DNA of 64,000 nucleotides from positions 1,792,001 through 1,856,000 of the forward strand of contig CM000208.1 in the NCBI GenBank assembly GCA_000002445.1, given 5' to 3'. The translations under genes were made by a program, and so were the position numbers. Within the stretch, counting starts at the first letter, position 1, and each line of letters starts with the position of its first letter. The DNA is from Trypanosoma brucei (taxonomy: Eukaryota). Below the pieces are notes generated by a model, which saw only the letters and a program-made list of their open reading frames with translations, ran no database searches and was not told the DNA's origin. Shown piece after piece: positions 11,701-53,454 of this stretch.

Positions 11701-13340
11701 AGCCCCAGTTCGCGCCAGCGGTTTTGTATCAACCCGCGCAAACTGGTTGGCGGTGCTTTGGCGGGGTTCGTACACCCAACCAGCTCCTCACGGAAGCTCC
11801 TCCAAGTCAGATGTTCTTCGAGCCATGAAACCACGTAGCACGTTACCTTCGCATCCTTCCGCTCATAGCTGTCCCGAATGTATGGAAAGAAGCCGTTAAT
11901 CACAAAAGCATTCTCCTCAGAGAGGCGCGCAACGTACGCTCCAGGGGCAACCTTCAACACATCAGTGCATGAGCACCACATCTCGTACAACTCGGTGGAG
12001 GATATATCCCCAAGGATGCGCAAGGCAGAATCAGCATTCCACACCCGTCCACTCCGAACCAACTCCTTCCAGGACATGCCAAACCGCTCCTGGAATTCTT
12101 GCATTGTTTTGGGGCTCAACTCGATCAAATCGGGTGTTAAAACAGCGGCGTACTTCGCAATGGTTCCGTAATGCTGCTCCATCACGTGCCTCGACGCTAT
12201 TTCGCTTCCAGAGATATGGTGTTGAGACAAGATTTGTACGCCCTTAACCTGTGTGAGTCGTTCCTCCACCAGCGCTCGGGTTTCGGGGGTGTTGGCGTGG
12301 GGTTTCACAAACAGCAGGGCCCTGTTGCGTACCTCGTCTGGATCTTCATCGTTTAGTACAATAGTCCAATCAGCTATGCGTGAAGGTGAAATCGGAGTAT
12401 CAGCTTGATTCTTCCGTTCACTTAGGCACTTTTGTCTCTCATCAGCATAAACAGCGGCCACTAGACAGGTAGCCTCACTACTCTGCATGTCTTCTGTAAT
12501 CTCAAATACAGAGCGACACGCGCCCTTGTAGCTGATGGGGGGATTTTTCATCAGTCCCTCAACAAAACCTCGCCCAACACCCTCTTGCAGCAGCTGCCGC
12601 CCAAAGTCATCTTCGTTGATACCACGATGCATCCACACAGAGCGGAGCGCAAGTGCCTCAATGGGCCCATTGGCATATATCAGGCCGTTGTCCGCAATGC
12701 TTGGTTGTTCACTGAGCCCGTATTCCTCCCAGTTCTCGTACATCAATCGGCGGAGGGACGTTGAGTCGGCTTCGCTGGGGTCCGCCGCGCCGATCACCTC
12801 TAAACAAAACCGTTTCCACGAGTACCGCGCCTCGGGCCATGAAAGGACGAAGAAACAAATCTTACTAGTGGGAGCGGTGAAGGAATTAAATAGCAGCGGG
12901 TAAAAGCCATTAATTACATATAGCCCTTCCTCTTTGAAATATGATACATAGAACCCGTACTCAAGCCGAACCCGCAATTTGGATGACCACCAACGGGCGT
13001 TTAATCCTTCCATAGTTGTATTGAGGGCTACCATAGCATCCTCGGGGGTCAGCACACGCCGTTCCTCCATCGCGACGGTCCAAGATTCACCAAACGCAGA
13101 GAAAAAAAGCATGGCAGACTCCTCTGAAGCGAATGTCCCCATTTCTAGAGAGGAGGACATGACACGCGCCGCAGTTGCGCTGTAATGTCGCTCCACATAC
13201 GCGCCCCGGCTAACCTCCTGGCCTGTCAGTAGCTGCATGTCGTCCACGCGAATCCCATGGGAGTCAAAATGATCTCGTGCCTTCTCAATAAACGTATCCC
13301 TGCATGCACTGGGTTTAACTAGTACGAATGATGTATTCAT
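5775..13340 (-). CDS. Giant 2521-aa protein built from seven tandem ~330-360-aa modules, each a divergent nucleoside diphosphate kinase (NDK)-like domain with a large insertion. The C-terminal ~200 aa is non-repetitive and ends in a degenerate EF-hand-like motif
   Basis: Uninterrupted 7.5-kb ORF with a genuine ATG at approx 13338-13340. Seven NDK-like motif series recur. Motif 1 (compare NDK IKPDG): LVKPSA, FVKPHA, VLRPFA, WVKPHA, VVNPAC, LMKTGS, ILKPHA. Motif 2 (compare NDK MVWEG): YV(V/I)NGF...VVSW(D/E/N)...W..F....(I/V)G. Motif 3 (compare NDK PGTIRGDF): P(T/G/E)S(L/I/F)R(G/R/H).....W...GL. Motif 4 (compare NDK NIIHGSD...EI.LWF): NGVHASAGPLEA...W, NGFCASATPVEG...W, NGLHVSQGAIQAIRER, NVVLASEGPLQAYKERDLW, NGLIYANGPIEAL..SVW, GAVMASASPLEAM...W, SAAVSVSQGPLEG...W. 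The histidine at the NDK catalytic position is retained in only 2 of 7 modules. Confidence 0.8.
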   Translation of the reverse strand: MNTSFVLVKPSACRDTFIEKARDHFDSHGIRVDDMQLLTGQEVSRGAYVERHYSATAARVMSSSLEMGTFASEESAMLFFSAFGESWTVAMEERRVLTPEDAMVALNTTMEGLNARWWSSKLRVRLEYGFYVSYFKEEGLYVINGFYPLLFNSFTAPTSKICFFVLSWPEARYSWKRFCLEVIGAADPSEADSTSLRRLMYENWEEYGLSEQPSIADNGLIYANGPIEALALRSVWMHRGINEDDFGRQLLQEGVGRGFVEGLMKNPPISYKGACRSVFEITEDMQSSEATCLVAAVYADERQKCLSERKNQADTPISPSRIADWTIVLNDEDPDEVRNRALLFVKPHANTPETRALVEERLTQVKGVQILSQHHISGSEIASRHVMEQHYGTIAKYAAVLTPDLIELSPKTMQEFQERFGMSWKELVRSGRVWNADSALRILGDISSTELYEMWCSCTDVLKVAPGAYVARLSEENAFVINGFFPYIRDSYERKDAKVTCYVVSWLEEHLTWRSFREELVGCTNPAKAPPTSLRGLIQNRWRELGLQGIPTTTNNGVHASAGPLEAVLERYLWIGSPLTHDPLTLRLQERGLTGALLYGWRSNPAVVMADGVRSGHVFDLLENLQTSEVVDLMCEAEQHVLAEYNERSVNRAVVVLRPFAVNEWTIETVRNCFAAADVAVVRELTLLSRSVEKRYLGSNEFLKLAHWADFKKDDMCGNVSSSIKKQFHAQFGYTWEGCVISGQLMGATSACEVLGLTPTELLHLWESVQPVQLHSNCWVVHLTDHEIYVLNGFVPFVRETHGKPGSVTHVFDVEWKEDVWTWHDLSERLVGFSDDCIPYKATEGSLQRTFADEWKGFGLPFKPASRWSAAVSVSQGPLEGTVDREIWLDVQLPEDHFVQRLLLEGVPLSMLTTYIDGERNPQDEDDEEEEEGVKAIKNIDDTSSPPPKSWTSRKNWSATGCFLPQYTRSDLSYHVQSSEVVRRMKVITSRFLRGLKMNYAFLWVKPHACTKHVEAWIPKALLQHRIEVISSGRVPMAEVFDKELADRKQCTLYRNAMTRAVHEIPISTKQMAEFDATFGITWNTAMNLHLVINAAQAVDRIGVLQLLKDWDEAPRKVCLAPSLYIAYLEREGLYVVNGFYPYLRSRMYAGSHVSWYVVSWDSEIMTWGDFHRYVIGTDVPEKAEESSLRHTLYKSWVELGLQRQPDGIDNGFCASATPVEGLADRVSWLGVSLEQDVFGRLLVMGGVDPGYLRKILENPLVRHREEPLESMGDAFDKLCTENPLLIAQLIGLQSSGGMHIVSPQAPRFVPVPPELSSSHEYKVKRDTGKECVDGCKGVLRAEGKPLCPEGDTSSTLKDEEGNLKRNYAFIVVNPACTSSEASDRVINYIADFLRHYNIRIDGSGSMVGGNQDLSSVAHAVQDGVFKYAVRQSPYQYALDSEALSLFLSTFGTMWDPRKVFNAVDAAVEFDYSAAYLRDRWLMCEPLARIAPNCFVGKMPDHDVYVVNGFALHTVETFCGEANMKYFLTVSWNSSDMDYAHFMDYIIGDPYLKEARPGSLQQVLCEEWKAAGLRRPPDSFEGAVMASASPLEAMRLKQMWLSLGIKRDAVCRFGMDELSITPYVMRRCLTNPRTPCGDGRFLFDMARRMNSKEALQLLQSENFAHLSEAPRNSAFVLMKTGSLCRGFALTVETVFARARVRIDEEGDVSAATLRERDFVQHLYAVELEYADCDVSTIKLSRKERDRVQLSFGVSWCNLLEGGVLVNAYEALVALSNITPVQLFYKCTAASRRLMVRPGLEIFELPFDGVFVVNGLMPGLKCFLESSEAMHHWYVVSWEPREMDWPTFLEEVVGSESPADAVPTSIRGQLNRRWRDYGITEPPDELRNGLHVSQGAIQAIRERTKCVKYSVQEDYLGSLLLRKGVLECVLQTWVENPEVLSGGIKMSIFEHLGQCDTSRVMFMMTALSEELKREEEEVDPTGAARLPANECAHDGGRDGTASTPTQERHSTLGEEAEGPMTVSSRAPQPAETGPSLLYRNTAMIILKPHAAGNVKVMGLLERVLNENGIRIKREVRKRTTPTLIEKQFSSPMLYATTCTNGYLDVTPGGEDDFYDAFGEEWKEAAKSQRVVGAREALIRFSLTPSQLYVKWSLPQQQHVHLAYDMEITKFHAEDVYVVNAAIPFECERMIESEPGVNDVHCYIVSWDQRDCSWKKFLHDVIGDPDPERAVPTSFRGELFSDWEDYDLPVRPNRIDNVVLASEGPLQAYKERDLWCGTGDFAPDPLVRALCHVDHDPTDLSEWAENPLVRYTGSKRHELNDGYYTGHMFSFVHGLDTKQFIDVLTEREGTFVPLAPAHIGLDEKVSGNGPDVECERPKSREDDWVCDPQHYFGNPARNSDEAALKGWLWESLLHASAEDVPRLWVHYGGKLECKEELRKQGYVSSLLSRVAASSAGNRSSICDILRSTIDGEAFERDIKMLDFFGQPPSKGKMSKMFEGMRRRGNGRMTYEEFRVALAMIHQM

Positions 13341-13911: not shown

Positions 13912-15969
13912 CTAACGAGGAAATCGGAGCGCCGCGTTATACTCATTTATGAGCGCTACGGCGTCGCCCGGAATAGCCAACATGGCAGTGTTTAACTGAA
14001 CCAAATAAGCGGCCACCTGCATACCCTCCGCCACCCCTGACACAAGGCTCCGAATCTTTTCTACCTGCTGTTGGTGAAGGTGTATAGCGTTTTCATTTTC
14101 TAGAAGCGCACGCATAAGCGTTGCCACGTCATGGCCATGAAACACGCACTCACCCCTGTGGCAACTCTCCCCATAAGTTAGCGGAATGGTTCGTCCAGCG
14201 TTGCGGTCGACAAACATGCTAAAATCCACTAATTTTTCCCAGTGCACTGGAATTAGCAATGCCGAGGTCATGTCCTGAGCACCGCCACCATCAGGTAGAG
14301 CAAAGAAAATGTGGTTCAATCCGTAGAGATTACCGTGCACCGTGCGTCTCGCAACAAGGTCCAACAGCATCTTGAGTATTAGCTTCATACACGTAGGAAA
14401 CGAGCAAGGCGACAGGGGAAGAAGAGAGAGCGGAACGCTGCGGTACCCTTTAGCCAGTGTAATGACGGTCAGCCCCCCATCAGAGTAGCGGTAGCCGGCA
14501 ACATGCACAGCGGATGTACTGCCAGTGACATACGATAATCCAAGTGCCGCACGATGTGCCTCATTTACTCCCTCTTGCACTGCTCTTACGCTCCAGCGGT
14601 AAATAAGAGCCTGCGGAGGTGAGCCCATGGCAGAAGAACAAGAAGGGATAACTGAGGGCACGCCCTGCGTTGGACCCTCCGTCATTTCCTGCGCCTCGTA
14701 CACATCAGCAGAGGCATGGTGGCACACGATACGGTAAAAACGGCCTTCCAGAACCAAAACTTTGCCAGGCGATACCTGCGGTGCGGACGCATCACTTGTG
14801 TAAAATTCGCCACCTGAGCAGAACGCCTCAACGTTTGCGTTAACAAACGACAAAACGCTAGCAGCGGGGATGGTTTGGCTTTGAGCTCCATAAACCTTAG
14901 TAGGTATAGTGACGGGATGATGAACAGTGGACTGCGGCGTCGGTCCGCACTTGGGTGGGAAAAGCTGCTTTGTCGTGCGAAACTCCGACAACCCCTCTCC
15001 TGCGCGTTGCGATGCGGACCCATCCGCAGGACATTCAGGAGACGTTTTGGCGTGGAGCACCGAACTACTTGACGTTACGCCCTCCCCTCCTAGTCTATCG
15101 TTGACGGCACCTTGCCACTCCAAAGGAGACGCTGTGCTGCTTCGCAGAGGTGGCGCCGCCGAGGCTAATTGGCTCGTTTGGTTCTCGGACGACTGCCCAA
15201 GATCTTCACCAGTAGAGAGCAGCACTGGAAACGCGGAATGACGACCATCTGATATCACCTCTGATTGAAATAGTAATTGATCCCGTGGTTGTTGCCGCGG
15301 CTGCCCGACAACACCTTCTGACCATGGAAAGGGGTTCACGCATGGATTCGCTCTCCTATCAGGGTAAGTGGAAAATTGAGACATCGGAACCGTGCCAGCC
15401 GCTGCCGCCGCTGGTGTTAGCGTGTACGACTCCGATGGGGCGACCAAGCTGGAAAACCGCTGAGTTGATGCAGACACCTCAAAGTTACTTTCTGTGTCAT
15501 TCATTGGGGGCAAGTTGACATATGGTGTTGGTCGGTACACGGAGTCCCTGCCCTCGTGGTCCTGTTCCTCCACGTGGCCCACTGGGCGGGTCACAGAAGC
15601 GTGGTTTCTCTCATTACTAACACCAGTACCCGAAGCGAGACGCACAGCAGAGTTTCGTGTGGCATCCCCTCGTCCCTCCACACGGAGGAGTTCGTGTTGC
15701 ACCTCCGACTCGATTATTTGGTAGAGTACACACAGTTCACGACCACAGTTATCACGCACTGGAAACTGGGAACGAAACACTACATTGGGGTCTCGTGAAG
15801 TGAGCAGGCCATTCCTTCTCTTGGCATCATCCGTCTGGCATCGCAAACCCTCCACAGAGGTGGCATCTTCATCCTCTTTCATGTAATCGAGCAATGACAT
15901 GCGCCTGATGTAAGTCCTGTCAAACCCGTAGTAGGCCTTGTAGGGTGAATACGCATTGACTTCTTCCAT
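13912..15969 (-). CDS. Hypothetical 685-aa protein; low-complexity Ser/Pro-rich middle; C-terminal protein-kinase-like domain that is probably catalytically dead (pseudokinase)
   Basis: The C-terminal region has LILKMLLDLVARRTVHGNLYGLNHIFF (compare kinase subdomain VIb HRDLKPxN, with HGN replacing HRD). It is followed by LVDFSMFV (compare DFG, here DFS). No clear Gly-loop or VAIK lysine is seen upstream. Confidence 0.5.
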   Translation of the reverse strand: MEEVNAYSPYKAYYGFDRTYIRRMSLLDYMKEDEDATSVEGLRCQTDDAKRRNGLLTSRDPNVVFRSQFPVRDNCGRELCVLYQIIESEVQHELLRVEGRGDATRNSAVRLASGTGVSNERNHASVTRPVGHVEEQDHEGRDSVYRPTPYVNLPPMNDTESNFEVSASTQRFSSLVAPSESYTLTPAAAAAGTVPMSQFSTYPDRRANPCVNPFPWSEGVVGQPRQQPRDQLLFQSEVISDGRHSAFPVLLSTGEDLGQSSENQTSQLASAAPPLRSSTASPLEWQGAVNDRLGGEGVTSSSSVLHAKTSPECPADGSASQRAGEGLSEFRTTKQLFPPKCGPTPQSTVHHPVTIPTKVYGAQSQTIPAASVLSFVNANVEAFCSGGEFYTSDASAPQVSPGKVLVLEGRFYRIVCHHASADVYEAQEMTEGPTQGVPSVIPSCSSAMGSPPQALIYRWSVRAVQEGVNEAHRAALGLSYVTGSTSAVHVAGYRYSDGGLTVITLAKGYRSVPLSLLPLSPCSFPTCMKLILKMLLDLVARRTVHGNLYGLNHIFFALPDGGGAQDMTSALLIPVHWEKLVDFSMFVDRNAGRTIPLTYGESCHRGECVFHGHDVATLMRALLENENAIHLHQQQVEKIRSLVSGVAEGMQVAAYLVQLNTAMLAIPGDAVALINEYNAALRFPR

Positions 15970-16399: not shown

Positions 16400-17803
16400 T
16401 TACCCACTGGGTGGGGCACTATGCTTTATAACAGTAACACAAATCAACTCCCGACACTCAGGGTAGGACAAAACTTTGTCCAACGATTCACGTGAGGCGT
16501 GCAACCCCACATTCGTCGAGCCTCTAATACCGTTCATTCCCCTACCCGCCGTCTTCTGCTCTGTCTCTCTCTGGCCAGCTTCTTGTGACAGCCACCGCAG
16601 AGCCACACTGTCCAACATTTCAAACACCGTCAACGACAGCTCACCTCCTGCCCTGTTGTCATCGTTTTCCACACTATTGCTATTACTGTTGCCACTGACA
16701 CCGTCCCCACCTCCAGCACTAATCATTATATTGGGAACGAAATGGCCACTATTGGTGTAGCCGTGCACGATGTCACCAATCCGAGTGGTTGCCATCTCTC
16801 GGCGTATTGTGAAGAGGTGCGCCACCATTGGACACAGTAAACCCATCACGTGCGCAGGGGACACCATGACATGGACGAAGCTTGTAATCGGAGTAGTGTC
16901 ACGTGGGAGTTGTTCCTGCCGCTGCTGCCTCTGGTACTTCAACAATGCAGGGCTGCGAAGTGAGAAGGGGGGCTCACGAGCACGGGACAAGAGAGGTCGT
17001 GCGAACAGGAGCGCCACAACTTTCAACAATCGAAAGAGCAACGGGACTCTCCCCGGAATGTAGCATCCCGGTACGCTATGGTGCAACATGGCACCGCGCA
17101 ACACGATTAAAAGGTGCCGCAAGTAGCGGGATACCTCACAAGAGAGCGTCACAGTGTCCACCAGCTCGCAACCATCCTCTGAGAGCATCACTTCAAGCAT
17201 ATTGCGCCTATTGACGACGTTTGACTCATCATTGTCTGTAGACTGAATAACCGCAGCACTTTCCATGGTGAACGATGACATGTACGTGGATAGTGCGAAA
17301 CCTGCACGTAACCATTCCGGGACTGCCGTTGCGAATACACGGGCGTCACAGTACGCCACAATACGCAAAGAAGGCACGCGTCGAACCTCCCCACCCACAC
17401 GGACAACGGAGAACTGCAGCACATCCATGATTGCGGACTGCACGGAGGGTGTAGCGGCAGCCAGGCCAGTTAAGCAGATAATATTCACAGGCCGTTGTTT
17501 CCCCTCTACGATATTGTTACCGGTAGAACTAGCGGTTTCTGCGCGGGATACGAAACTGCAGAAGGTTTCACTACTGGTTTGTTCGGTGAGTCGCAGCTCC
17601 AAGTACGTTGGCCCCTTCGGCATCGATGTCACGGTGGTGTTACAAGCCCCGTCATGAAGTACAAGAAGGTGTGCGGATGGCACGCAACAACATACTGAGA
17701 CAAGCACGTACAGCTGCCGGCACTCGCATAGCACTGGATGGTTCGTAGCGGGCCACTGACTGGAAAGGGGATCGGGAAAACACTGGCTAAACGTGGCCGG
17801 CAT
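16400..17803 (-). CDS. Hypothetical protein, 467 aa, no recognisable domain
   Basis: Long ORF on the cluster strand with non-repetitive composition. The downstream gap to the next gene is ~430 bp. Confidence 0.5.
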   Translation of the reverse strand: MPATFSQCFPDPLSSQWPATNHPVLCECRQLYVLVSVCCCVPSAHLLVLHDGACNTTVTSMPKGPTYLELRLTEQTSSETFCSFVSRAETASSTGNNIVEGKQRPVNIICLTGLAAATPSVQSAIMDVLQFSVVRVGGEVRRVPSLRIVAYCDARVFATAVPEWLRAGFALSTYMSSFTMESAAVIQSTDNDESNVVNRRNMLEVMLSEDGCELVDTVTLSCEVSRYLRHLLIVLRGAMLHHSVPGCYIPGRVPLLFRLLKVVALLFARPLLSRAREPPFSLRSPALLKYQRQQRQEQLPRDTTPITSFVHVMVSPAHVMGLLCPMVAHLFTIRREMATTRIGDIVHGYTNSGHFVPNIMISAGGGDGVSGNSNSNSVENDDNRAGGELSLTVFEMLDSVALRWLSQEAGQRETEQKTAGRGMNGIRGSTNVGLHASRESLDKVLSYPECRELICVTVIKHSAPPSG

Positions 17804-18323: not shown

Positions 18324-19901
18324 CTATAGTGCGTCAGGAGAATCGATGCGTGGGGAAAGTGCGTTATCGTCTCCAAAATTACTTACGTCCCAAAGCTCCT
18401 CCCCACTTAAATTGTGGGGCTCGTGGCTGCCATTGGCTCTAGTACCTGCCACCGCCCCAGTCGCAGTGCGCCGACGGGAAACTACCCTTCTAGTGTCTGA
18501 AATGTTTGTAAATGCGTGAGAAAAATCATCGTTACCCTGCAGGGCGTCAGGAGTAAATGCAGTGCCTCCATCACCAAAGGCTGTGCTTTCATTCTGCCTC
18601 TCTCCCCCAAAGACGTCAGGATACCCTATACTGCCAGGACGCTGCCATTGTTGTACCGTTGCCGCTTGGTTGTCACCTACCGATGCGTCGAAACCCCCCA
18701 CAGCTCCTGGGGCCAAACCCGCTCTATTGAGAGATAAGTCACTGAGGTTATCGACATTAAAAACATCAGCTAAATTGTCAGCACCACGTCCCATCATCCC
18801 TGAGCCAAACGGGGGCACGGTGTCGCCGACACCCTGCACCACAGGAGTCCCATCCGGCCTCAGTGGCTCCGCCTTTTGCAGCCCCGAAGAGCCCCAATGC
18901 ATCGCGCTTCCTCCCGCATGAGGTTCATCCTCCAACAGAGAGTGCATATTTTTGAACTGCTCTTCCTGGGCGCGGGTGGCGAATAGTCTTCGCATTTCCT
19001 CCACCTGTTCGTTGTAGTCGGCTTCTGTCATAAGGGCATAACTTCGCACGATGCGGACTCGTTCCCCTCTCCCAATAGCATCACGAGCCTCCGATATGAT
19101 CCTCTCCCGTGCCGCGGTATGAATGCTGAGTGCTGCCTTATCTACAGAAAGCCTTATACCAGTCTTTTCCCACGGTACGTCTGACATTGAAAAAAGGGCT
19201 ATTGCCGGATCGTGTGATTTATATACCCGTGTGACAAGTCCGATTGTGTATATGATAAGGTTGACAATGGCTGCTCCCATAGCCCACTCGAGCCGGGTTC
19301 CGAACAGATGGAACCCATCAAAGCCAGACTCTAGAAGTTTCTCGTTATCTTCCTCGGCGAGCTTAGCCGCACAGAATTCCAAACTGGCACTGTAGTAAGA
19401 CCGAACAGGACCTGACACCGCCACAAGCGCGATGATCGTGACGGTCAAAACGTATGCCAATACATTTAAAATGAGATGCACTGGTACGTGTAGACCAAAC
19501 AAATGCATATGACGAATATTGGTGGAGTAGCAATACCCACCCGCAACACCGTTGAGGGCCGCCAGGAACTGCACAACTAGAACAGCGCGCATGTGTTGCA
19601 GCATAGAAATAATCGCAAAGGGAAGAGACTTAGCGTTGACACCCACCACCACTCCGACACCGTAAATTGGCATTATGCCTTCGTACTCGCAGTTACTCAT
19701 CACCATTTCTAGCGAATCAGAAAGATTCGCGCCGGGAGCGCTGAAGCTGCCATGCATACCTGCCTGCAATCGAACGTCAGCCTCGGTTAGAAGCACAACG
19801 TAACTAATGACGAAAATCGCCGCACCCAACTGATAAAGTACCCTCATTACTCGTTCAACCCTCTGTCGGGGGGACGTAGGAAACGGAAAGACGAAAAACA
19901 T
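18324..19901 (-). CDS. Multipass membrane protein (about 4 predicted TM helices in the N-terminal half) with a long Gly/Asp/Asn-rich, probably disordered, C-terminal tail
   Basis: Hydrophobic segments include AAIFVISYVVLL, IMPIYGVGVVVGV, VLVVQFLAALNGVAGG, LILNVLAYVLTVTIIALVAV and AIVNLIIYTIGLV. The C-terminal 250 aa is rich in G, D, N, S and FG/GG dipeptides. Confidence 0.55.
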   Translation of the reverse strand: MFFVFPFPTSPRQRVERVMRVLYQLGAAIFVISYVVLLTEADVRLQAGMHGSFSAPGANLSDSLEMVMSNCEYEGIMPIYGVGVVVGVNAKSLPFAIISMLQHMRAVLVVQFLAALNGVAGGYCYSTNIRHMHLFGLHVPVHLILNVLAYVLTVTIIALVAVSGPVRSYYSASLEFCAAKLAEEDNEKLLESGFDGFHLFGTRLEWAMGAAIVNLIIYTIGLVTRVYKSHDPAIALFSMSDVPWEKTGIRLSVDKAALSIHTAARERIISEARDAIGRGERVRIVRSYALMTEADYNEQVEEMRRLFATRAQEEQFKNMHSLLEDEPHAGGSAMHWGSSGLQKAEPLRPDGTPVVQGVGDTVPPFGSGMMGRGADNLADVFNVDNLSDLSLNRAGLAPGAVGGFDASVGDNQAATVQQWQRPGSIGYPDVFGGERQNESTAFGDGGTAFTPDALQGNDDFSHAFTNISDTRRVVSRRRTATGAVAGTRANGSHEPHNLSGEELWDVSNFGDDNALSPRIDSPDAL

Positions 19902-25008: not shown

Positions 25009-28000
25009 TCATCGTCTTCTATCCGGCGACTCCTGAGGAGAAAAAAGGAATCTCGTCATCATCTCCCGATTACGTCGTAGCGCCATGGGCCCCGACGGCA
25101 CGTCATCAAATCCCTTCGACGGGCTGCCTCCCTCATGAGCATCGAGGTGTTTCATGAGTGTTCGCCGCCCTGACAACTTCCGCTTTACCTTCTCAAATTT
25201 CACAAGACCGTAAGGACTGCGACCCTTATCCATCAGGTTACCAATTTCAATAAATTTAGGAACATCGACAGTCCAAAACATACCAAAGACAGTGTGCTCC
25301 GCCTCCCACAGCAATACAGACTTGGTATCGGGGTTGTACGCCTTTATCAGTGCTGCACTGCGGCCAAAACCCACCACGTCATGCGCTATGGCAGTGTCGT
25401 AGTTCAGGAGGAGAACTGTGTTATTATTCTCCCGACGTGTGGCATCTCTAAGAATCGAATCGATATTCCCTTCCGTCACATCCTCCATGACCTCCACATG
25501 CACAAGCCACTCTTCATCATTGTGTTCATCGATTTGACTGTCACTTGACCCCCTTGTAGAATTGCGAGATTCCAGAAACATGCGGCAAATCTGGGCGAGA
25601 AATACTGTATCGATTTGCTTGTTAATCACTGAAAGAGATACATCCACGTCACGCCACGCAAATGCCTGAGTCCCCCGGCGACGTTGACGGTTCATTGTCT
25701 GAAGGTACGCCTCGTAAAATATCTCCTCTGGTGAGTAGAAGAATCCAAGCTGGGTGAAGGCGCACGAAAGTGCCTGGAAATGCGGCGATGGGCTAACATG
25801 GAAAATGTTCCGTAGAGGCAGCATACGCAACGGTGTTTCTCGAGAATACTCAAGTGGAAACGATGGTGCCGGAAGAGTCGTGCAGTGTGACACTTTAAGG
25901 AAGCCACAACGGCGGTGAACGGTGTCCGCATCATGCATGGCCCTGAAGAGAGTGTGGAGGCACACGGACCATGTGCGGAAGTATCGGTTGGGATTCGTAT
26001 CCATCACCGTCACGCCGCCGGTTGCCTTATTGTAACCAACAACTAGGCCTGTGGAACCAAATGGACGGGAGTCACCGAACACCTCAATTTCATTTGTGTT
26101 GAACAACATGACGAGGGCCTTGCCACGGTCCGCCAAGCATTCCTCCATGATTTGTTCAAACTCCTCGACGGTTACACGTGCTTTGTTGCCGTTTCGCCTG
26201 TCAGTATGATAGGCCTTTACGCTTACATTAAGACCGACATGCTCCACGTACGTCGTGAGGCAAACAGCCATTGATTCAAGCGTGAAGTAGCGCAGCATCA
26301 ACGACGATATTTCGAAGGGTAGGGCAACAATAACGTCTTCAAATGTCGTAGGACAGCCCAACTCCGTTAAAGTTAGCGCAATCATCGTTGGGCTCAATGG
26401 CAATGATGGAAAACACAATGTTCTCATCACCTCCCTTCTCGTCACACCGAGTGCATCTTGGTCCCTTAGTAGAGCGAGGTATCTTTGCACAGTTGGATCC
26501 ACGCGCCTCAAGGCCCCAACCCGCGGAGCCTGCGATTCATGTCCCAAAGGCAGCGAGTCACACCATGTCTCATCATGACTTAATCCCACATGTGTGCTGG
26601 CTGCGGTGCGCTTGGAGAATATAAGGTATCCGTTTGAGGTCATAGCCCGATGCAGGCGTTCAAGTGAACAAGTCCAGAGCTTCATGAACTTCTTCGGGTG
26701 CGCATCAATAAGCGACACCACCTGTGACTCCTCATCATAACCGGAGAGCACGCACCACTGGGGAGTATTGCTGACGTACAGGACATTGTGCGCAACGTTA
26801 GCATTATACATAATCACCATGACGTGCTCCGGGGCGTCAGGATCCTTGTTTGCATTCTTTACGTCGGTGAGAATTGACTCCAGCTCGAACACAGAGATGG
26901 TTGGCACCGCGTCTTCTCGAGAGGTGTTTGTGAGAATAGGGTAAATGGAGACATCGTAATTACGCTCCGTAAGGCGGATGTACTCTCGCGCGTATTTGAA
27001 TACCTCTCCCAACGGCAGCGTGCTGTCGATGAGCACCTCTGCTGGAAACTTCATGGTGCGGACAATATCCGAAACTGGTAGCCCATTACCGTGGCCGTGC
27101 GCACTTGCTCTGTCACCTCCGAGAAGGTGCATCGCCCACGCAACTGCGATGATGTGAGGGCTGGTGTGGCCTGAGATGGCAGAGGCATGGGTTCCCATAG
27201 ATGTCGTGCCAAGTACATTTCCTCCCGCCAGTTCAGGCGAGAACATGGATTGAACTTCGTCGTGGGACATCACCGGCACGCTATCCTTGCGAAAGATACG
27301 CATGAAACCACGCGCTCGTTCATTCTCCAACGGTACTGTCATCGCCTTGAAAAGGGCTGCGGCAGGAACTTCAAACAACCTTACGTGCAACTGATCATCA
27401 ACGATACCTTCTGCGAGGGTAACCATCAGCTCCACTACACACCGCACCTCCACAATAACAGCGTACACTCCATTGTTATTTTTAGAATATTGCCTCTCCT
27501 GATCCCTTAATCCAACACGGATAGAGTCTGCGAGGGCGGAGACGTCGTCATCTCCATCCACAAAGTTGTCAACGAATGTTTCCTGCTGGAGAACGTATGG
27601 ATCATAATTTACAATGCGTACTGCTTGAATCTGCTCTTCACTGTCGTTGGCTATGGCTTTTGTGAACTCGTGCAACTGCATGCACGTCTGCCGATCGCCC
27701 ACCTCGTTGCGACCAAGTTCCACCTGCCCAACGACGGGCGAGATGTCAAAATGGACAACAGAAAGGCCATACTCGTTCTTGAAGCGATTGTCAACATCAA
27801 TAAACTCACGGAGAATGTCGCTCATGACCTGTAGTGTCTGGACACCGCTGTGGAGGTAGTGGAGGGGTAAGTGGACAGCAAAAAATATATCTTCCATGGT
27901 AACGCACTTTTTGCGATCCCTGCAGCCGCGCGCACCTCCGAGAAGGTAGGAAAGAGCAACTGCAGCAGCACCAAAGTGGCCGCATTCCATAATAGCCTTA

Positions 28001-28476
28001 TGCTCGTAATCCCGCTGCACCTCGTAACTCTTGAAGAATGCCATACGGGCTTTGCGAATTTCTACCACCTGTTGGCGGCTTCTGTGTTGACCTACAAGGG
28101 ATCCAGTCCTCGATTGCTCCGCATTGTTAATGTTACTCGTGTTGCCTGATTGGTTCGTTCCCCACGACCGCCCGTTGTTTTCGTTGGGCGTTTGGTTCTG
28201 TCGCCGTGGGGGCTGGTGCTCGGTACACGACGACTCAGAGCCCCCAGCTGTCGTGCTGAATGAAACCTGCGAGGACCGACACGCTCCGCGCATTGAACCC
28301 TCCAATACCTCTTCATTTCCACTGCGCGCGTCTTCTGCACCGCCGTAGTAAACCCGATCCCTTTCCATTGCACGGCGGCCTGAATTTGACACCTTCTCAA
28401 GTGCTGCCAGAGCGGCTTCCCACTTCCTGAGGTGCTCCTCAGTGGAGGCACGGGCATTAATTTGGCCGTTCCCCAT
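25009..28476 (-). CDS. Hypothetical protein, 1155 aa, no recognisable domain (begins MGNGQ...)
   Basis: Uninterrupted 3.5-kb ORF on the cluster strand with non-repetitive composition. No motif could be assigned by eye. Confidence 0.55.
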   Translation of the reverse strand: MGNGQINARASTEEHLRKWEAALAALEKVSNSGRRAMERDRVYYGGAEDARSGNEEVLEGSMRGACRSSQVSFSTTAGGSESSCTEHQPPRRQNQTPNENNGRSWGTNQSGNTSNINNAEQSRTGSLVGQHRSRQQVVEIRKARMAFFKSYEVQRDYEHKAIMECGHFGAAAVALSYLLGGARGCRDRKKCVTMEDIFFAVHLPLHYLHSGVQTLQVMSDILREFIDVDNRFKNEYGLSVVHFDISPVVGQVELGRNEVGDRQTCMQLHEFTKAIANDSEEQIQAVRIVNYDPYVLQQETFVDNFVDGDDDVSALADSIRVGLRDQERQYSKNNNGVYAVIVEVRCVVELMVTLAEGIVDDQLHVRLFEVPAAALFKAMTVPLENERARGFMRIFRKDSVPVMSHDEVQSMFSPELAGGNVLGTTSMGTHASAISGHTSPHIIAVAWAMHLLGGDRASAHGHGNGLPVSDIVRTMKFPAEVLIDSTLPLGEVFKYAREYIRLTERNYDVSIYPILTNTSREDAVPTISVFELESILTDVKNANKDPDAPEHVMVIMYNANVAHNVLYVSNTPQWCVLSGYDEESQVVSLIDAHPKKFMKLWTCSLERLHRAMTSNGYLIFSKRTAASTHVGLSHDETWCDSLPLGHESQAPRVGALRRVDPTVQRYLALLRDQDALGVTRREVMRTLCFPSLPLSPTMIALTLTELGCPTTFEDVIVALPFEISSLMLRYFTLESMAVCLTTYVEHVGLNVSVKAYHTDRRNGNKARVTVEEFEQIMEECLADRGKALVMLFNTNEIEVFGDSRPFGSTGLVVGYNKATGGVTVMDTNPNRYFRTWSVCLHTLFRAMHDADTVHRRCGFLKVSHCTTLPAPSFPLEYSRETPLRMLPLRNIFHVSPSPHFQALSCAFTQLGFFYSPEEIFYEAYLQTMNRQRRRGTQAFAWRDVDVSLSVINKQIDTVFLAQICRMFLESRNSTRGSSDSQIDEHNDEEWLVHVEVMEDVTEGNIDSILRDATRRENNNTVLLLNYDTAIAHDVVGFGRSAALIKAYNPDTKSVLLWEAEHTVFGMFWTVDVPKFIEIGNLMDKGRSPYGLVKFEKVKRKLSGRRTLMKHLDAHEGGSPSKGFDDVPSGPMALRRNREMMTRFLFSPQESPDRRR

Positions 28477-45424: not shown

Positions 45425-47419
45425 TCACTGAAGATACTTCGCACGCGCCAACAAAGCGAAGAATGCCAACACCATGTAAACCGCAACACTTGCTGCGCAC
45501 GCGACGATGTATTCCGGGAGTTCTTCCGGAAAATACCCCTGCAACCTTGCATACGTCGCGCCATCCGGAAAGCAGAAGGGCACCTTCGGCTCACACACGA
45601 ACTTCAAACCATCAAATTCGTTCACCACAAGCCCCGCTAGGCCGTAGCGCACAAACGAAACATATTTGAGCCAACGCCAAAAGAATGGAAGGCTCTGAGT
45701 GCCCATCAAGACACCCCCCGAGGGTAGAAGCAAAAGCACAAGCACCAACGGTGCCACAATGTTCGCCACTTGTATGTTTCTCGACAAGCTCGAGAGGAAT
45801 AAACAAAGAAAGTAGCTGTTCAGCACAACAAATGTGCACGTACAGGAAAAGAGGAGGAACTTACCCACACCCTGTTGCAGACCCATCGTGAAGTACACTA
45901 TAATGTCGAACAGGAGGTTTGTCACAACGGTTATCGGCACGTCCTGAACAATCTTCCCTATGTAGTACGCAAGCACACAATACATCCCGGCACGATGCTC
46001 TCTCACGAAAATAGCACGCTCCTCGATGAAAAGATTAAGGGTTGCTAGGCACGAAAGCGCTGTATTCATGGTTACAAAAAATAGCGAGCCCATTCGATTC
46101 CGAATAGACAGCTGATCGTTACCCAACTGAAAGTACACAGAGCCGATCACTGTCCCGAAAAATGCCGCTGCAACGATACGGGCCACCGCCGCGCTGGAAT
46201 CCCGTAGTTTGCTTAACACCGCACGCCACGCCACGACATAGATTTGTTTCGTGATGCCACGGTAATATGGTGACGGGTCTCCCCCTGGAAGACCATCATA
46301 TCCATAACTGCACCTTTCGTTGATGGCACCAATCTCACGCTCCACCACGGCGAGCAGTGAAGTGTGGAAGGCGGTGACAATGCCGGAGCACGTTCGTGAC
46401 ATGGCTAAAGCACAGTTTTGACCTACACCACTTTTAAAAAACTCCTCACTTGGTGGCAGAGCCACAGCGTCCAGTAAAACATCTGCTGGATTGTCCAGCT
46501 GCGGCGGCGCGACGCCTACACCCTCGAGGAATCGCATGACTGCACTCGCGGGCCCGAAGTACGCCTGCTCACCTGACCCGGTTAACAGCAGCAACTTGTC
46601 AAACAGCTGGAATATGCTTTTGCGTGGCTGATGAATTGAAAAGACAACAGCAACACCACCAGCTGCTATCTCCTTAAGGACAGTAAGGAGATGTTGGGCA
46701 GTAAAGGTGTCAAGGCCTGTGGTTGGTTCGTCAAGGAATAAAATGGATGGCTGGGACACCAGCTCCATGGCGATCGCGCAGCGCTTCTTTTCTCCCCCGC
46801 TGATTCCACGGACCATCTGCGACCCAATTCGTGAGTTCTGTACGTGATCGATGCCCAGAAGTCGCATGACACGCTGAATGTGTGTTTCCAGCACACTGCG
46901 TGTGAACGACGGCGGAGTGCGCAGCTGGGCGGCGTATGAAATGCTTTCTTTCACAGTCAAATAAGGCCAAAGCAGGTCTTCCTGCTGTACGTACGCACTG
47001 ATGCGGCGAAACGATCCCAGGTGAATTGGGTGCCCCTGCAACAGCACCTCACCACCTATAGTCCCACTCTTTTGTCTTTGCGCCATTATGTCAAGAAGCG
47101 TCGACTTACCGGCACCAGACGGACCGAGCAAGGCAAGCAACTCACCACCTCTCACATAGCCCGAGATACCGCGTAAAATTTCTTTTGGCCTCCCTTTGTC
47201 ACCTTGGACAGTGTATGTGATATTTCTAAACGTTAAGGCCACAGGCTTCTCTGGCCCCAATGAAGCGGGGTCTTCTTGCTTTGGGCCCTTAACTAGAAAA
47301 GAGGTCTCCTCTTCTTCGGCATCTGTAAACTGTGTGAAACAAGGAGAGCTGCCATTGCCCTCCATTGGACCCGTCCTTACTGCTGGTGCAAAAACTTCGA
47401 GCAAGTTAATGAAATGCAT
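45425..47419 (-). CDS. ABC transporter, ABCG (white/half-transporter) subfamily: N-terminal nucleotide-binding domain followed by a 6-TM domain
   Basis: Walker A LLALLGPSGAGKSTLLDIMAQR; ABC signature ISGGEKKRCAIAMELV; Walker B ILFLDEPTTGLD. The C-terminal half has hydrophobic helices. NBD-then-TMD order is typical of ABCG. Confidence 0.88.
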   Translation of the reverse strand: MHFINLLEVFAPAVRTGPMEGNGSSPCFTQFTDAEEEETSFLVKGPKQEDPASLGPEKPVALTFRNITYTVQGDKGRPKEILRGISGYVRGGELLALLGPSGAGKSTLLDIMAQRQKSGTIGGEVLLQGHPIHLGSFRRISAYVQQEDLLWPYLTVKESISYAAQLRTPPSFTRSVLETHIQRVMRLLGIDHVQNSRIGSQMVRGISGGEKKRCAIAMELVSQPSILFLDEPTTGLDTFTAQHLLTVLKEIAAGGVAVVFSIHQPRKSIFQLFDKLLLLTGSGEQAYFGPASAVMRFLEGVGVAPPQLDNPADVLLDAVALPPSEEFFKSGVGQNCALAMSRTCSGIVTAFHTSLLAVVEREIGAINERCSYGYDGLPGGDPSPYYRGITKQIYVVAWRAVLSKLRDSSAAVARIVAAAFFGTVIGSVYFQLGNDQLSIRNRMGSLFFVTMNTALSCLATLNLFIEERAIFVREHRAGMYCVLAYYIGKIVQDVPITVVTNLLFDIIVYFTMGLQQGVGKFLLFSCTCTFVVLNSYFLCLFLSSLSRNIQVANIVAPLVLVLLLLPSGGVLMGTQSLPFFWRWLKYVSFVRYGLAGLVVNEFDGLKFVCEPKVPFCFPDGATYARLQGYFPEELPEYIVACAASVAVYMVLAFFALLARAKYLQ

Positions 47420-47887: not shown

Positions 47888-50044
47888 TCAAACTTCAGCG
47901 ACGACAGCATAAGCGTTTAACCTCCTTATTATAAGGCCGGCATCCAGAAGCTGCTGAATCACCGAACTTAAACACATTCCAATATGATGTTCTCCACCCA
48001 TTCGCTCAAAAAGACACCTCACAACCTCTTCAGGCACTGCTGAGCCATTACACGCCCGCTGTTCAGCCAACATCTGGCGCAACAGCACAAGGCAAGCGGC
48101 CTTTTTTCCTACCCTTTTTCGCTTGTGTGCACCAGCAGCGGAACGTGATGCGGGACCATAGACCGGTCCTTCCGATACGAAGTGATCTAGTGAGCTCAAA
48201 CCAGCTGAGGTCGTGGCAACGGACACGGCTGACTGGAGAGTCGTGGACGAAGCTGAAGCAGCCGTATCCGCAGTCCACAGGTGATGTTTGTAACACAACC
48301 AGACCTCCTCCGCAAGGGTTTCGTTCCATCCAGCGACACAGGCACGACGACAATCGCCGCTCTGAGCTTCAGCCTCAACATTGCAAATCCCGTTGAGTAT
48401 GAGCCGTGCAATGTTTAACTCCCATAGCACTACCAAATGTGAGCCGAAGGTCTTTTCGCATTCGGTGACCCCGTATTGGCACCGCTCGGAAAGACGGCTA
48501 AGGTAAAACGCTGTGAATTCGTTAACAGGAATGGCCGCCTCCAAGGATGCGGCACACGGCGCCTCCTTCACAATGATGTGAAGTGTTGCGCTGCTTAACG
48601 GTCCGTGGCACATCGAGACCCTGCTGCTACCTAATGAGGTAGAGCGAGACCGAGGTGCCGACTTCGACTGCGAGCGGGCCACGGAAGCAGCAATAACCTC
48701 ATCGCCGACTAACGCAGCGTTCTGTAACAGCAAGTTGGCGGTGGTGCGAGCCACAAGAGTAAACTGCGGTACGATAGCCGCGATGCCGAGGTTGTCATCA
48801 TTGGAAGCAGCGGTAATCTGAGCACGGGTACGGACCACCCCACCACGCAGGGTGGCAGCCCCACCAGTACCGCTGCCGCCTCCACTGTTTATGGGACACA
48901 GGCCACATAGGAGGCCTCCCACATGATTCGTGAAAGCACCGCTGCCGTTGGCAGGCAACTCATCGATGACGAGTGAGTCCACCGCGGAAACCGCACCAGC
49001 CATAAGAAGTTGCTGATGCACGTGTGGGTACGCTGCAGTGATAGCCTGCGAAGCAACTGTGGATCGCTGCCCTCCGCGCATAACGTGGGCACCAACAAGT
49101 GTGGCGCAGGAGCCTAAAAAGTGAAGAAAAGCGCGCAAAAGCGCCGACTTCCCCGAACGGGAGGGACCGAGTAGTAACAAGTGAAGAGGCCGCCGACTGC
49201 GGCAACGAAGTGAACGATATATCGTGTGTGTGGCGACAAGAAGAAGCATCGACTTGCACAATTCTTGACCCGCAATCTCTGGAGCAAATGCTCTCGTAAG
49301 CTGTTTAAAAGTAAGAGGTGGCGTAGCCGACACAAGGGAGAATGGGTCCCTAGTCACTTCGGCGGTTGCTAGCATTGGCCGCATCACCCACTCCACATCG
49401 CTACATCGTTCAGTGTTGTGAATAACGTAAGCAGTACTTCCATCATCCATACTGCTTGCATACATAACGGCGCATAGTACATCCCCCAGGCGCATCTGCG
49501 TACCAACATCACCATAGGCCCATGCGGAGAAATGCCGCATGCTGTCCAGCAGCTGTATGACGAAGTGTGTGCGGCTGCAGAGAGCAGGTTGAAGTCGCTC
49601 AGTTGATGATGACACAAAATCTGTACCACGCCAACCAAGCTGAACAATGTCCGTCGTAGTAGGCAGAAGACGCAACGCGACGACTCGTATGGGACGTCGA
49701 TGCAGCACACCATGGATGTCAGAACCATGCGGCAACCTGGGAAAGGGCGAAGAGGAGGTTGCGCTGATTAGAAACGCACATTCCGAAAAACTATAAACAT
49801 TTTCAAAGGAAGAAGCCAAGCACCGAAGGTAATACAGCGCTAGCGGTTCGTCCTGTAGATTCCAGACTCTCTTTTCCCAAGTAGCACACAACGATGGTGG
49901 TGCTGGCGGCCCGTCTTGCAACAAGTTGAGCAAATCTGTGTACGTTAATCCGCCAACACCAGAATTTTTCTTAGAAAAATCGTGCTGCTGAAGCCATTCC
50001 CTCACGTAGCGCATCCATTCTCCCGCCAAACAGTCAACTGCCAT
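47888..50044 (-). CDS. Divergent MCM-family AAA+ protein with degenerate ATPase motifs (candidate MCM-BP / MCMDC2-like paralogue, not a core MCM2-7)
   Basis: APEIAGQELCKSMLLLV matches the MCM P(S)IYGHE.IK.ALLL element just before Walker A. Walker A is LLLGPSRSGKSALL (GKS present, GDPG absent). Walker B is degenerate, LVIDELPANGSG instead of CIDEFDKM. ARTTANLLLQNAAL is sensor-1-like. No clear arginine-finger SRFD. Confidence 0.45.
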   Translation of the reverse strand: MAVDCLAGEWMRYVREWLQQHDFSKKNSGVGGLTYTDLLNLLQDGPPAPPSLCATWEKRVWNLQDEPLALYYLRCLASSFENVYSFSECAFLISATSSSPFPRLPHGSDIHGVLHRRPIRVVALRLLPTTTDIVQLGWRGTDFVSSSTERLQPALCSRTHFVIQLLDSMRHFSAWAYGDVGTQMRLGDVLCAVMYASSMDDGSTAYVIHNTERCSDVEWVMRPMLATAEVTRDPFSLVSATPPLTFKQLTRAFAPEIAGQELCKSMLLLVATHTIYRSLRCRSRRPLHLLLLGPSRSGKSALLRAFLHFLGSCATLVGAHVMRGGQRSTVASQAITAAYPHVHQQLLMAGAVSAVDSLVIDELPANGSGAFTNHVGGLLCGLCPINSGGGSGTGGAATLRGGVVRTRAQITAASNDDNLGIAAIVPQFTLVARTTANLLLQNAALVGDEVIAASVARSQSKSAPRSRSTSLGSSRVSMCHGPLSSATLHIIVKEAPCAASLEAAIPVNEFTAFYLSRLSERCQYGVTECEKTFGSHLVVLWELNIARLILNGICNVEAEAQSGDCRRACVAGWNETLAEEVWLCYKHHLWTADTAASASSTTLQSAVSVATTSAGLSSLDHFVSEGPVYGPASRSAAGAHKRKRVGKKAACLVLLRQMLAEQRACNGSAVPEEVVRCLFERMGGEHHIGMCLSSVIQQLLDAGLIIRRLNAYAVVAEV

Positions 50045-51705: not shown

Positions 51706-52755
51706 TTACTTCCCTACAGCTGCCTGCCCACCAAAGCGAGAAGAACGCGCGTTAGCACGGGAGCCAGCCGAGTTGTAAAACGTTCGTGGGCCCGCTACTG
51801 TACGCGGGGCCTTCTGTCGCGCCTTCTCCCTCATAGCATTGACATGCACGGCGCGATGCGTTGGTAGGTTACCGTCGTAGTTCAGCCAATCCAGCACATG
51901 CCTCGTACGGTGCCGGATTTTCGGCTCGATCTGTTCAGGTTCAAATTCCCAGCGTACCAAATGGCTCGCACGTTCATCTGGTGTATCACCGAACCACTGG
52001 TAGTCAACACGTACGTACTGATTTTGCAGCGGCCTTTCGTTTAGCACGCGCGTTGCCGTCACAGGGTCCGCGACCGAGGCGCCCAGTGCCTCGCAGCCCT
52101 GAACAACCTCAGCAAGCAGCTGTTCCACGGCAGTGTGAGCAGGCGTTCCCTCAACTGGAGCTACGGGTAGAATGCGAGGCTTCTGCCCGTTATCAAGAGA
52201 GTGCAAAACCACCCATGGGGTTTCGCTATATTCCAACAGCATCTCTGCTTCCGTATACACCTGCGAGTTGTGGAACGTAATAGGGATAAGGAACTCACGT
52301 GCGAAGGACCGTGCGATCTCCGCGGCAAGTTTCCCTCGAGCGGTACTCTGCCGTTGTGCATAGTAGACGTATATTGACTTGGTGAAAGGATGGACCTTAA
52401 CAACACGCTCTAGTAGTAGTGCATAAGGCCATATTACCTCCGCAGCTTCATTTCCGAACTGCCGTTTTGGCTTCGGTAAACCCTTGAACGGCTCTAGCTG
52501 ATCCCACTCATCACGCATTTGCAACTCCCACCGACGGATAAATTTGTACTGGGCGGCCTCTCGCTCACTTGTTTGTCTCTTTCCTGGTCCCCGATGCAGC
52601 CCAGTTGGTCGGCGGCTGGTCGAGGTCGGCACATCCTGAAGCTGCTCAAGTCCAAAAAGAGTACATGTCGTCGAGAAGCCTCGAACAACGTGGAGGGGCC
52701 GGCAACAGGAGCTGGTCACCGCACGTCGCGTTAGAGACAACCCGGGAACAAGCAT
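51706..52755 (-). CDS. Hypothetical protein, 349 aa (possibly a mitochondrial protein; no confident domain)
   Basis: Long ORF on the cluster strand. The N-terminus MLVPGLSLTRRAVTSSCCRPLHVVRGFST is Arg/Ser-rich and resembles a mitochondrial presequence. Confidence 0.5.
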   Translation of the reverse strand: MLVPGLSLTRRAVTSSCCRPLHVVRGFSTTCTLFGLEQLQDVPTSTSRRPTGLHRGPGKRQTSEREAAQYKFIRRWELQMRDEWDQLEPFKGLPKPKRQFGNEAAEVIWPYALLLERVVKVHPFTKSIYVYYAQRQSTARGKLAAEIARSFAREFLIPITFHNSQVYTEAEMLLEYSETPWVVLHSLDNGQKPRILPVAPVEGTPAHTAVEQLLAEVVQGCEALGASVADPVTATRVLNERPLQNQYVRVDYQWFGDTPDERASHLVRWEFEPEQIEPKIRHRTRHVLDWLNYDGNLPTHRAVHVNAMREKARQKAPRTVAGPRTFYNSAGSRANARSSRFGGQAAVGK

Positions 52756-53121: not shown

Positions 53122-53454
53122 TTAGCGTGTGCGTACCGTCGCTATGCGCTGATGCCTTGACTGGTTCAGCACACGTGGGCAGCCATCACGGTCCTTCTCC
53201 AGGGCAACGCAGTACTGGCAATAATAAGCCACTTCTGTTGGTTTGCTTGCGTTACACATTACGCAACGCTCGTCTCCCTCGCGGCCAAAACCACAGTCAC
53301 TACAGATACGGACTTCCCGCATGGTTGGCAACACTTCGTCGAACTGAAGATCACATATAACACACCGACCTTCGTGTTGCTGACATACATAGCCTATATC
53401 CACACCTGGCAACTTGCGGCACATCTGCTGCTCCTGCTTGGAGTGGCGAAGCAT
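53122..53454 (-). CDS. PHF5A: PHF5A / Rds3 / SF3b14b-like zinc-knot splicing factor (SF3b complex subunit)
   Basis: 110 aa: [27 protein letters not shown]...[50 protein letters not shown]. The Cys spacing matches human PHF5A ([27 protein letters not shown]...[48 protein letters not shown]). Confidence 0.88.
   Translation of the reverse strand: [110 protein letters not shown]

Follow-up and report, generated by a model that had tools for sequence, protein, structure and literature searches.

A scan for open reading frames (ORFs) across a 64-kb stretch of Trypanosoma brucei DNA (hereafter the window) places a complete ORF of 718 amino acids (aa) at 47888..50044 on the minus strand, the strand to which all coordinates within this gene refer. 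The encoded protein is 99% identical to the hypothetical protein DPX39_100079900 of T. b. equiperdum chromosome 10, and full-length orthologs sharing 44–53% identity are present in nine other Trypanosoma species. Because the ORF lies between ABCG6 (Tb927.10.7360) and a PHF5-like gene (Tb927.10.7390), we infer that it is Tb927.10.7370, the name used below. Database entries from Trypanosoma are named 'uncharacterized' or 'AAA+ ATPase domain-containing'. The Viannia orthologs carry the automatic UniProt names 'MCM domain-containing protein' or 'MCM C-terminal AAA(+) ATPase domain-containing protein', and databases have therefore already recognised the MCM-likeness of one family branch; one of the sequences aligned here (P0014) is Leishmania braziliensis A4HPF6. 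Literature searches returned no paper describing Tb927.10.7370, its family, or a kinetoplastid MCMDC2 or 'MCM-like' protein. The gene is real, and its product, so far uncharacterised, belongs to the known class of degenerate MCM paralogues; it does not represent a system of a new kind.

Single sequences reveal the MCM relationship only marginally, which explains the 'hypothetical protein' label. The T. brucei protein alone matched PF00493 at 19.8 bits, over the first half of the domain and below the Pfam cut-off of 23.3, and a phmmer search of PDB sequences found MCM3 at E ∼0.05. PF00493 was matched weakly by 10 of 10 Trypanosoma orthologs, and MCM matches obtained with a Trypanosoma-only profile were likewise marginal. 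When 1.84 billion representative proteins were searched exhaustively with a profile, twelve further, much more distant relatives (22–28% identity) were identified, and no canonical MCM was returned, nor anything outside the Tb927.10.7370 family; one additional sequence from this search (P0023) was rejected as a coiled-coil repeat false positive. A later word-indexed search with a broad family profile recovered the known Trypanosoma set only. With a family alignment of 21 members (alignment A2), the relationship becomes significant. The 21-member profile matched MCM3 (8ouw_3) among PDB sequences with E=1e-7 over ∼220 positions in HMMER, followed by MCM7, 5, 4, 8 and 2 and by archaeal MCMs. An hhalign comparison with 30 genuine MCM2/3/7 cores taken from the database (bait sequences were used for fetching only) gave 96.3% probability and E=1.7e-9 over 192 columns, covering residues 243–451, and a second MCM set reproduced the same core match, ending at residue 452. 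Identity between the T. brucei protein and MCMs is ∼12–17%, and the search scores do not separate MCM9 from MCM5, 6 or 7.

Structure prediction followed the same pattern. A model computed with AlphaFold2 (AF2) from 10 Trypanosoma sequences was unusable (predicted local distance difference test, pLDDT, 47; predicted template-modelling score, pTM, 0.32), and the model from the 21-member family reached a pLDDT of 75 and a pTM of 0.70. When this second model was compared with the PDB using Foldseek, all of the top 50 matches were MCM chains (E 7e-16 to 2e-13), and alignments to full-length MCMs extended to ∼830 columns. A preliminary description of this DNA, made from its letters without database searches, had called the product MCM-like, and the family profile and hhalign matches bear this out, even though the single-sequence PF00493 score lies below its cut-off. 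The AAA+ core (aa 243–452, 48689..49318), which includes the pre-Walker-A element FAPEIAGQ, is homologous to the MCM P-loop domain, with a resemblance beyond chance, and we consider it very probable that the product is an MCM homolog.

In the predicted structure the protein retains the complete MCM domain order: helical subdomain, OB-fold, AAA+ core, lid and winged helix. The predicted N-terminal domain is of the MCM type, with a helical subdomain (aa 1–83, 49796..50044) followed by an OB-fold of six β-strands (aa 114–213, 49406..49705). Residues conserved specifically within the family are found in the helical subdomain at PPPxSL 47–52, W56, E66-P67, and R74. The last hairpin of the OB-fold is probably equivalent to the MCM N-terminal hairpin, and its tip is acidic or polar (SSMDD 199–203), not basic. 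Beyond the AAA+ core, a helix resembling the MCM pre-sensor-2 insert is followed by a conserved, Ser/Arg-rich linker (aa 455–479, 48608..48682) that is predicted to be disordered (pLDDT <50 for 451–479). The linker consensus is AASxARSxSxSxxxSRS and the T. brucei sequence is AASVARSQSKSAPRSRSTS; Ser460 is invariant in a 12-sequence subset (A7). The linker is a suggestive candidate site for phosphoregulation. The helical lid region (aa 484–607, 48224..48595) contains Arg547 in the sequence LARL, conserved in at least 90% of members. A basic cluster, KRKRVGKK (aa 641–648, 48101..48124), directly precedes the winged helix; its Lys648 is also at least 90% conserved, and the cluster is suggestive of a nuclear localisation signal. 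The C-terminal winged-helix-like domain (aa 646–718, 47891..48109; pLDDT ∼90) is modelled as helices 647–664, 672–681, 684–688 and 692–701 followed by strands 705–708 and 711–714; it is recognised in the predicted structure only, with no match at the sequence level.

In MCMs, the cis-acting elements are Walker A, Walker B and sensor 1; the arginine finger and sensor 2 work in trans, on the adjacent subunit. The preliminary description had recognised an MCM-specific pre-Walker-A element and a GKS P-loop, and both are present. The former (PEIAGQELCKSMLLLV, aa 255–270) aligns to the MCM element, with FAPEIAGQ matching MCM IAPSIYGH, and is aligned in all family members. The Walker A P-loop GPSRSGKS (aa 293–300, 49145..49168) aligns to MCM GDPGVAKS; the pattern GxxxxGK[ST] is invariant (21/21), and the T. 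brucei sequence has the classical P-loop form, not the MCM-specific GDPxx[AS]KS form. Walker B is SLVIDE (aa 357–362, 48959..48976), aligned to MCM CIDEFDKM. The description had judged this motif crippled on the strength of the string IDELPANGSG. That string is indeed found (SLVIDE and then LPANGSG, aa 357–369), the MCM FDKM extension is gone, and the Glu varies across the family, but Asp361 and Glu362 are intact in T. brucei. The first acidic position, Asp361, is acidic in all 21 members (Asp in 19, Glu in 2), and Glu362 is found in eight of nine Trypanosoma sequences, with D, R, Q, G or S in its place elsewhere. The sensor-1 strand QITAASN (aa 409–415, 48800..48820) aligns to MCM ILAAANP; its Asn415 is essentially confined to Trypanosoma, occurring in eight of nine sequences from that genus and in one deep-lineage relative (P0017).

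The arginine finger has been lost. No SRFD is found, as had been described earlier: the sequence opposite MCM LSRFD is VPQFT (aa 425–429, 48758..48772) in the HMMER and both hhalign alignments, such that SRF has become PQF and Gln427 stands in place of the finger arginine. This column holds Gln in seven Trypanosoma sequences, Arg in T. congolense and Phytomonas, His in T. vivax, and A, F, Y, S, G or K elsewhere, and there is no conserved arginine in it across the 21-member family. A candidate sensor-2 column in the lid, a region that by itself has no MCM sequence match, contains Val in Trypanosoma and Arg or Glu elsewhere. Compared with MCMs, the helix-2-insert region is shorter by three residues. 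The model has short strands at 341–348, and at 382–384 and 403–415; the pre-sensor-1 loop is Gly-rich and of low confidence, and no conserved lysine is present in the family opposite MCM IAKAG. The pair of DNA-contacting hairpins that characterizes MCMs (helix-2-insert and pre-sensor-1, with its conserved lysine) was not found.

The N-terminal domain differs within the family by a deletion. Between strands two and three of the OB-fold, at the topological site of the MCM zinc subdomain, non-Trypanosoma orthologs contain an insert of ∼35 residues with a Cx2-4C...Cx2C motif. The cysteine pairs are present in 10/10 full-length non-Trypanosoma trypanosomatid orthologs, including those from Leishmania, Phytomonas, and deeper lineages, versus 0/9 from Trypanosoma. 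In all nine Trypanosoma proteins the segment has shrunk from ∼55 to ∼20 residues, leaving a short connector in T. brucei (aa 139–152, 49589..49630; alignment A2, columns about 340–425). Because every full-length non-Trypanosoma ortholog has the motif and no Trypanosoma protein does, the zinc subdomain is ancestral to the family and was secondarily deleted in the genus Trypanosoma. The preliminary description had suggested a check for an N-terminal OB-fold and a zinc motif; in the T. brucei protein the former is predicted, and the latter survives in its non-Trypanosoma orthologs.

All large ORFs of the window are on the minus strand, and the window is therefore part of a single directional gene cluster. 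The gene order around Tb927.10.7370 is CFAP65, ABCG6, Tb927.10.7370, a 349-aa ORF, the PHF5-like gene (110 aa, Tb927.10.7390, 53122..53454), a RING protein, succinyl-CoA ligase beta, a bromodomain protein, OBG and MTR4. The order RING, PHF5, an ORF of 340–370 aa, the MCM-like gene and CFAP65 is kept in three relatives: Phytomonas (P0012), a Leishmaniinae metagenome contig whose PHF5 groups with its Leishmania, Leptomonas and Lotmaria counterparts, and a deep lineage with ∼23% identity. This common gene order identifies these relatives as positional orthologs. The member that has diverged most, P0022 (582 aa, gene at 673..2421 of contig L001 from Logan SRR7085473), has neither the helical subdomain at the N terminus nor the zinc motif, and no synteny is recognisable on its 3.8-kb contig.

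In T. brucei, ABCG6 (45425..47419, minus strand) separates the MCM-like gene from CFAP65; it is not at that position in Phytomonas or on the deep-lineage contig, which indicates a lineage-specific insertion into an otherwise conserved order in the T. brucei lineage. The 349-aa ORF (51706..52755, minus strand) is directly upstream of the MCM-like gene and has no Pfam match; a counterpart of 337–369 aa occupies the same position in all syntenic relatives. By its position it is probably Tb927.10.7380, an identifier that is listed beside succinyl-CoA ligase in the supplement of a nuclear-proteome paper.

Farther away on the minus strand, a 1155-aa ORF (25009..28476) has as its sole Pfam match a partial phytochelatin-synthase-like domain (PF05023, E=1.3e-7) at residues 751–855, an unusual setting for the papain-like fold of PF05023. 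A 2521-aa ORF lies at 5775..13340, and ORFs of 467–685 aa at 13912..15969, 16400..17803, and 18324..19901 have no Pfam match at E≤0.001. A SPO11/TopoVI-A-like gene of 453 aa is found at 3339..4700 (minus strand; PF21180 E=2.7e-14, PF04406 E=1.2e-8). The gene usually called TbSPO11 is Tb927.5.3760 on chromosome 5, an identifier found also in two indexed papers, and the gene in the window would then be the second of the SPO11 genes known from trypanosomatids. Two such paralogues exist in these parasites, and both were recently shown to be important for Leishmania hybridisation (PMC13143177). The preliminary description had found the presence of SPO11 in the same transcription unit suggestive, with the reservation that co-location in a kinetoplastid polycistron is no evidence of shared function. 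The two genes are ∼43 kb and more than ten unrelated genes apart, and nothing supports a functional link between SPO11 and Tb927.10.7370.

Because the P-loop and an acidic residue have been kept and the residues for hydrolysis and DNA contact have drifted, we propose that the Tb927.10.7370 product is a nucleotide-binding, non-motor subunit. Selection has maintained the P-loop, in which Walker A does not vary, and the acidic residue that coordinates Mg, the conserved Walker B Asp, and has let drift the trans arginine finger, the basic residues of the DNA-contacting hairpins and, outside Trypanosoma, the Walker B Glu and sensor-1 Asn. The protein may therefore bind ATP, hydrolyse it poorly or not at all, and not translocate. 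It would serve as a structural or regulatory partner that is probably nuclear and probably associated with other MCM-family proteins. Its own finger face would be dead and could not activate a neighbour; its P-loop face could accept the arginine finger of a neighbour, and in Trypanosoma its own site might be fired in this manner. We assign a probability of roughly 0.6 to this reading, that of a trypanosomatid-specific, highly divergent MCM paralogue beyond MCM2-9 and MCM-BP that functions as a nucleotide-binding, non-translocating structural or regulatory partner.

Several observations weigh against this proposal. T. brucei keeps the full cis set (Walker A, Walker B Asp-Glu, and sensor-1 Asn), and ATP hydrolysis with the help of a neighbour's finger is conceivable there; the arginines at the finger position of T. 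congolense and Phytomonas point in the same direction. Tb927.10.7370 is absent from the searched supplements of the TrypTag paper, the nuclear proteome, an RNA interference screen with methyl methanesulfonate, and a single-cell RNA sequencing study of sexual stages. Finally, sequence-level matches are limited to the AAA+ core. Profiles of the N-terminal part alone or of the lid plus winged helix alone found no MCM among PDB sequences; Pfam MCM_N, MCM_OB, and MCM_lid matched no family member; and hhalign against MCM fragments that included part of the OB-fold did not extend the match past the core. The assignments of MCM-type N-terminal, lid and winged-helix domains therefore come from a single model predicted from 21 sequences.

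The retention of the cis set raises the alternative that the protein is a working ATPase or helicase subunit, its site being completed by the finger of a neighbour in a hetero-oligomer, or a non-canonical arginine serving as the finger. Asp361-Glu362 and Asn415 are kept in 8/9 Trypanosoma, Arg433 within VARTT is invariant in that genus, the deep-lineage sequences P0017–P0021 have a common arginine two positions past the finger column, and an arginine occupies that column itself in the two lineages noted above. None of these residues, however, is shared throughout the syntenic orthologs. In several of them the Walker B Glu gives way to R, Q, G or S; sensor 1 is lost outside Trypanosoma, the conserved pre-sensor-1 lysine is missing, and the helix-2-insert region is shortened; moreover, the switching of the finger column among Gln, Arg and His in closely related Trypanosoma suggests relaxed constraint. 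We consider a working subunit unlikely. A more elaborate version of the partner role is that of a tenth MCM-fold protein that joins a subset of the canonical MCMs (for example the unusual TbMCM-BP/MCM4-8 assembly or MCM8/9) as an ATP-loaded, finger-dead 'capping' or gate subunit of an alternative, non-unwinding complex used for lineage-specific chromatin tasks. Such tasks, if the complex exists, could include replication-transcription coordination at polycistron boundaries, variant surface glycoprotein (VSG) silencing, or the control of recombination; this is speculation that we rate as distinctly unlikely.

Somewhat less credible still is that Tb927.10.7370 corresponds, in kinetoplastids, to the meiotic MCM-domain proteins (MCMDC2, MEI-217/218 and Mcmd1), acting downstream of SPO11 and possibly with MCM8/9. 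The predicted domain set resembles that of Mcmd1, but the search of 1.84 billion representatives gave no sequence link to MCMDC2, MEI-217, MEI-218, or Mcmd1, and Tb927.10.7370 is not among the sexual-stage markers in the single-cell supplement, which is a weak negative. It could also be argued that the protein is a generic P-loop or AAA+ protein whose MCM resemblance is a by-product of common P-loop motifs: the single sequence scores below the Pfam MCM cut-off and similarly to AAA_16, and short matches to the G-alpha P-loop score comparably in HMMER. Given the profile and Foldseek matches, this explanation is extremely improbable, and G-alpha was rejected as an identity, the match being confined to a 30-residue P-loop stretch.

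The replication and recombination toolkit of trypanosomes is divergent, with an unusual origin recognition complex and an MCM-BP linked to antigen-gene silencing. A family that occupies one locus in Trypanosoma, Leishmania, and Phytomonas makes a concrete candidate for an MCM-complex regulator so far missing from these parasites. The combination of an invariant P-loop, a dead finger, and a zinc subdomain kept in Leishmania and deleted in Trypanosoma may represent a natural experiment in which a helicase subunit is decaying into a nucleotide-binding pseudo-motor. The T. brucei gene, labelled 'hypothetical protein', could be given the annotation 'MCM domain-containing protein, degenerate'. The advance is incremental, as degenerate MCM paralogues are well known and the Leishmania orthologs had been flagged automatically, and it is of moderate interest for kinetoplastid replication biology.

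Compared with canonical MCMs (MCM2-7 and archaeal MCMs; PF00493), the Tb927.10.7370 family has a homologous AAA+ core in which the pre-Walker-A element, P-loop Lys/Ser, Walker B Asp, and sensor-1 strand align, and a predicted order of helical subdomain, OB-fold (with the zinc motif in non-Trypanosoma members), AAA+, lid, and winged helix. It differs in the loss of the finger, FDKM, and pre-sensor-1 Lys, in an unconserved Walker B Glu and sensor-1 Asn, in the shorter helix-2-insert, and in the deletion of the zinc subdomain in Trypanosoma. The known T. brucei set already comprises MCM2-9 and an MCM10-like protein. Tb927.10.7370 is not TbMCM8, which is annotated as Tb927.10.10410, with MCM9 annotated separately; in addition, MCM8-type proteins generally keep the catalytic motifs (PMC6553819, PMC6922451). 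Nor is it MCM-BP, since TbMCM-BP is Tb927.7.1770 on a different chromosome, and no family member matched PF09739 (MCM_bind) at E-values up to 1–10. MCM-BP, a regulator related to the MCMs but not itself a helicase, associates with MCM subunits, and TbMCM-BP co-purifies with MCM4-8 (PMC3581582). The Tb927.10.7370 product would resemble it in being MCM-related and not a helicase, but differs in its P-loop and in its full, predicted MCM-like fold.

MCMDC2, Drosophila MEI-217/MEI-218, and Tetrahymena Mcmd1 are built like MCMs, have degenerate motifs for ATPase activity and DNA binding, and are thought to be non-motor partners; Mcmd1 contains helices, a zinc finger, an OB-fold with no basic residues at the hinge, an MCM-like core, and a winged helix (PMC6553819, PMC6922451). 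The preliminary description had likened the T. brucei protein to MCM-BP and to MCMDC2/Mei-218 as a regulator. The non-motor part of that comparison agrees with the reading preferred here, but in its Walker motifs the protein is like neither. A homolog from Methanopyrus kandleri (PDB 3f8t) belongs to an unrelated, archaeal lineage, and any resemblance to it would reflect parallel degeneration and not a shared degenerate ancestor. The domain set predicted for the trypanosomatid family is that of Mcmd1, including an OB-fold without basic residues at its tip. MCMDC2 and MEI-218 are described in the literature as having no conserved Walker A and B residues, whereas the Tb927.10.7370 family has an invariant Walker A and has kept the Walker B Asp.

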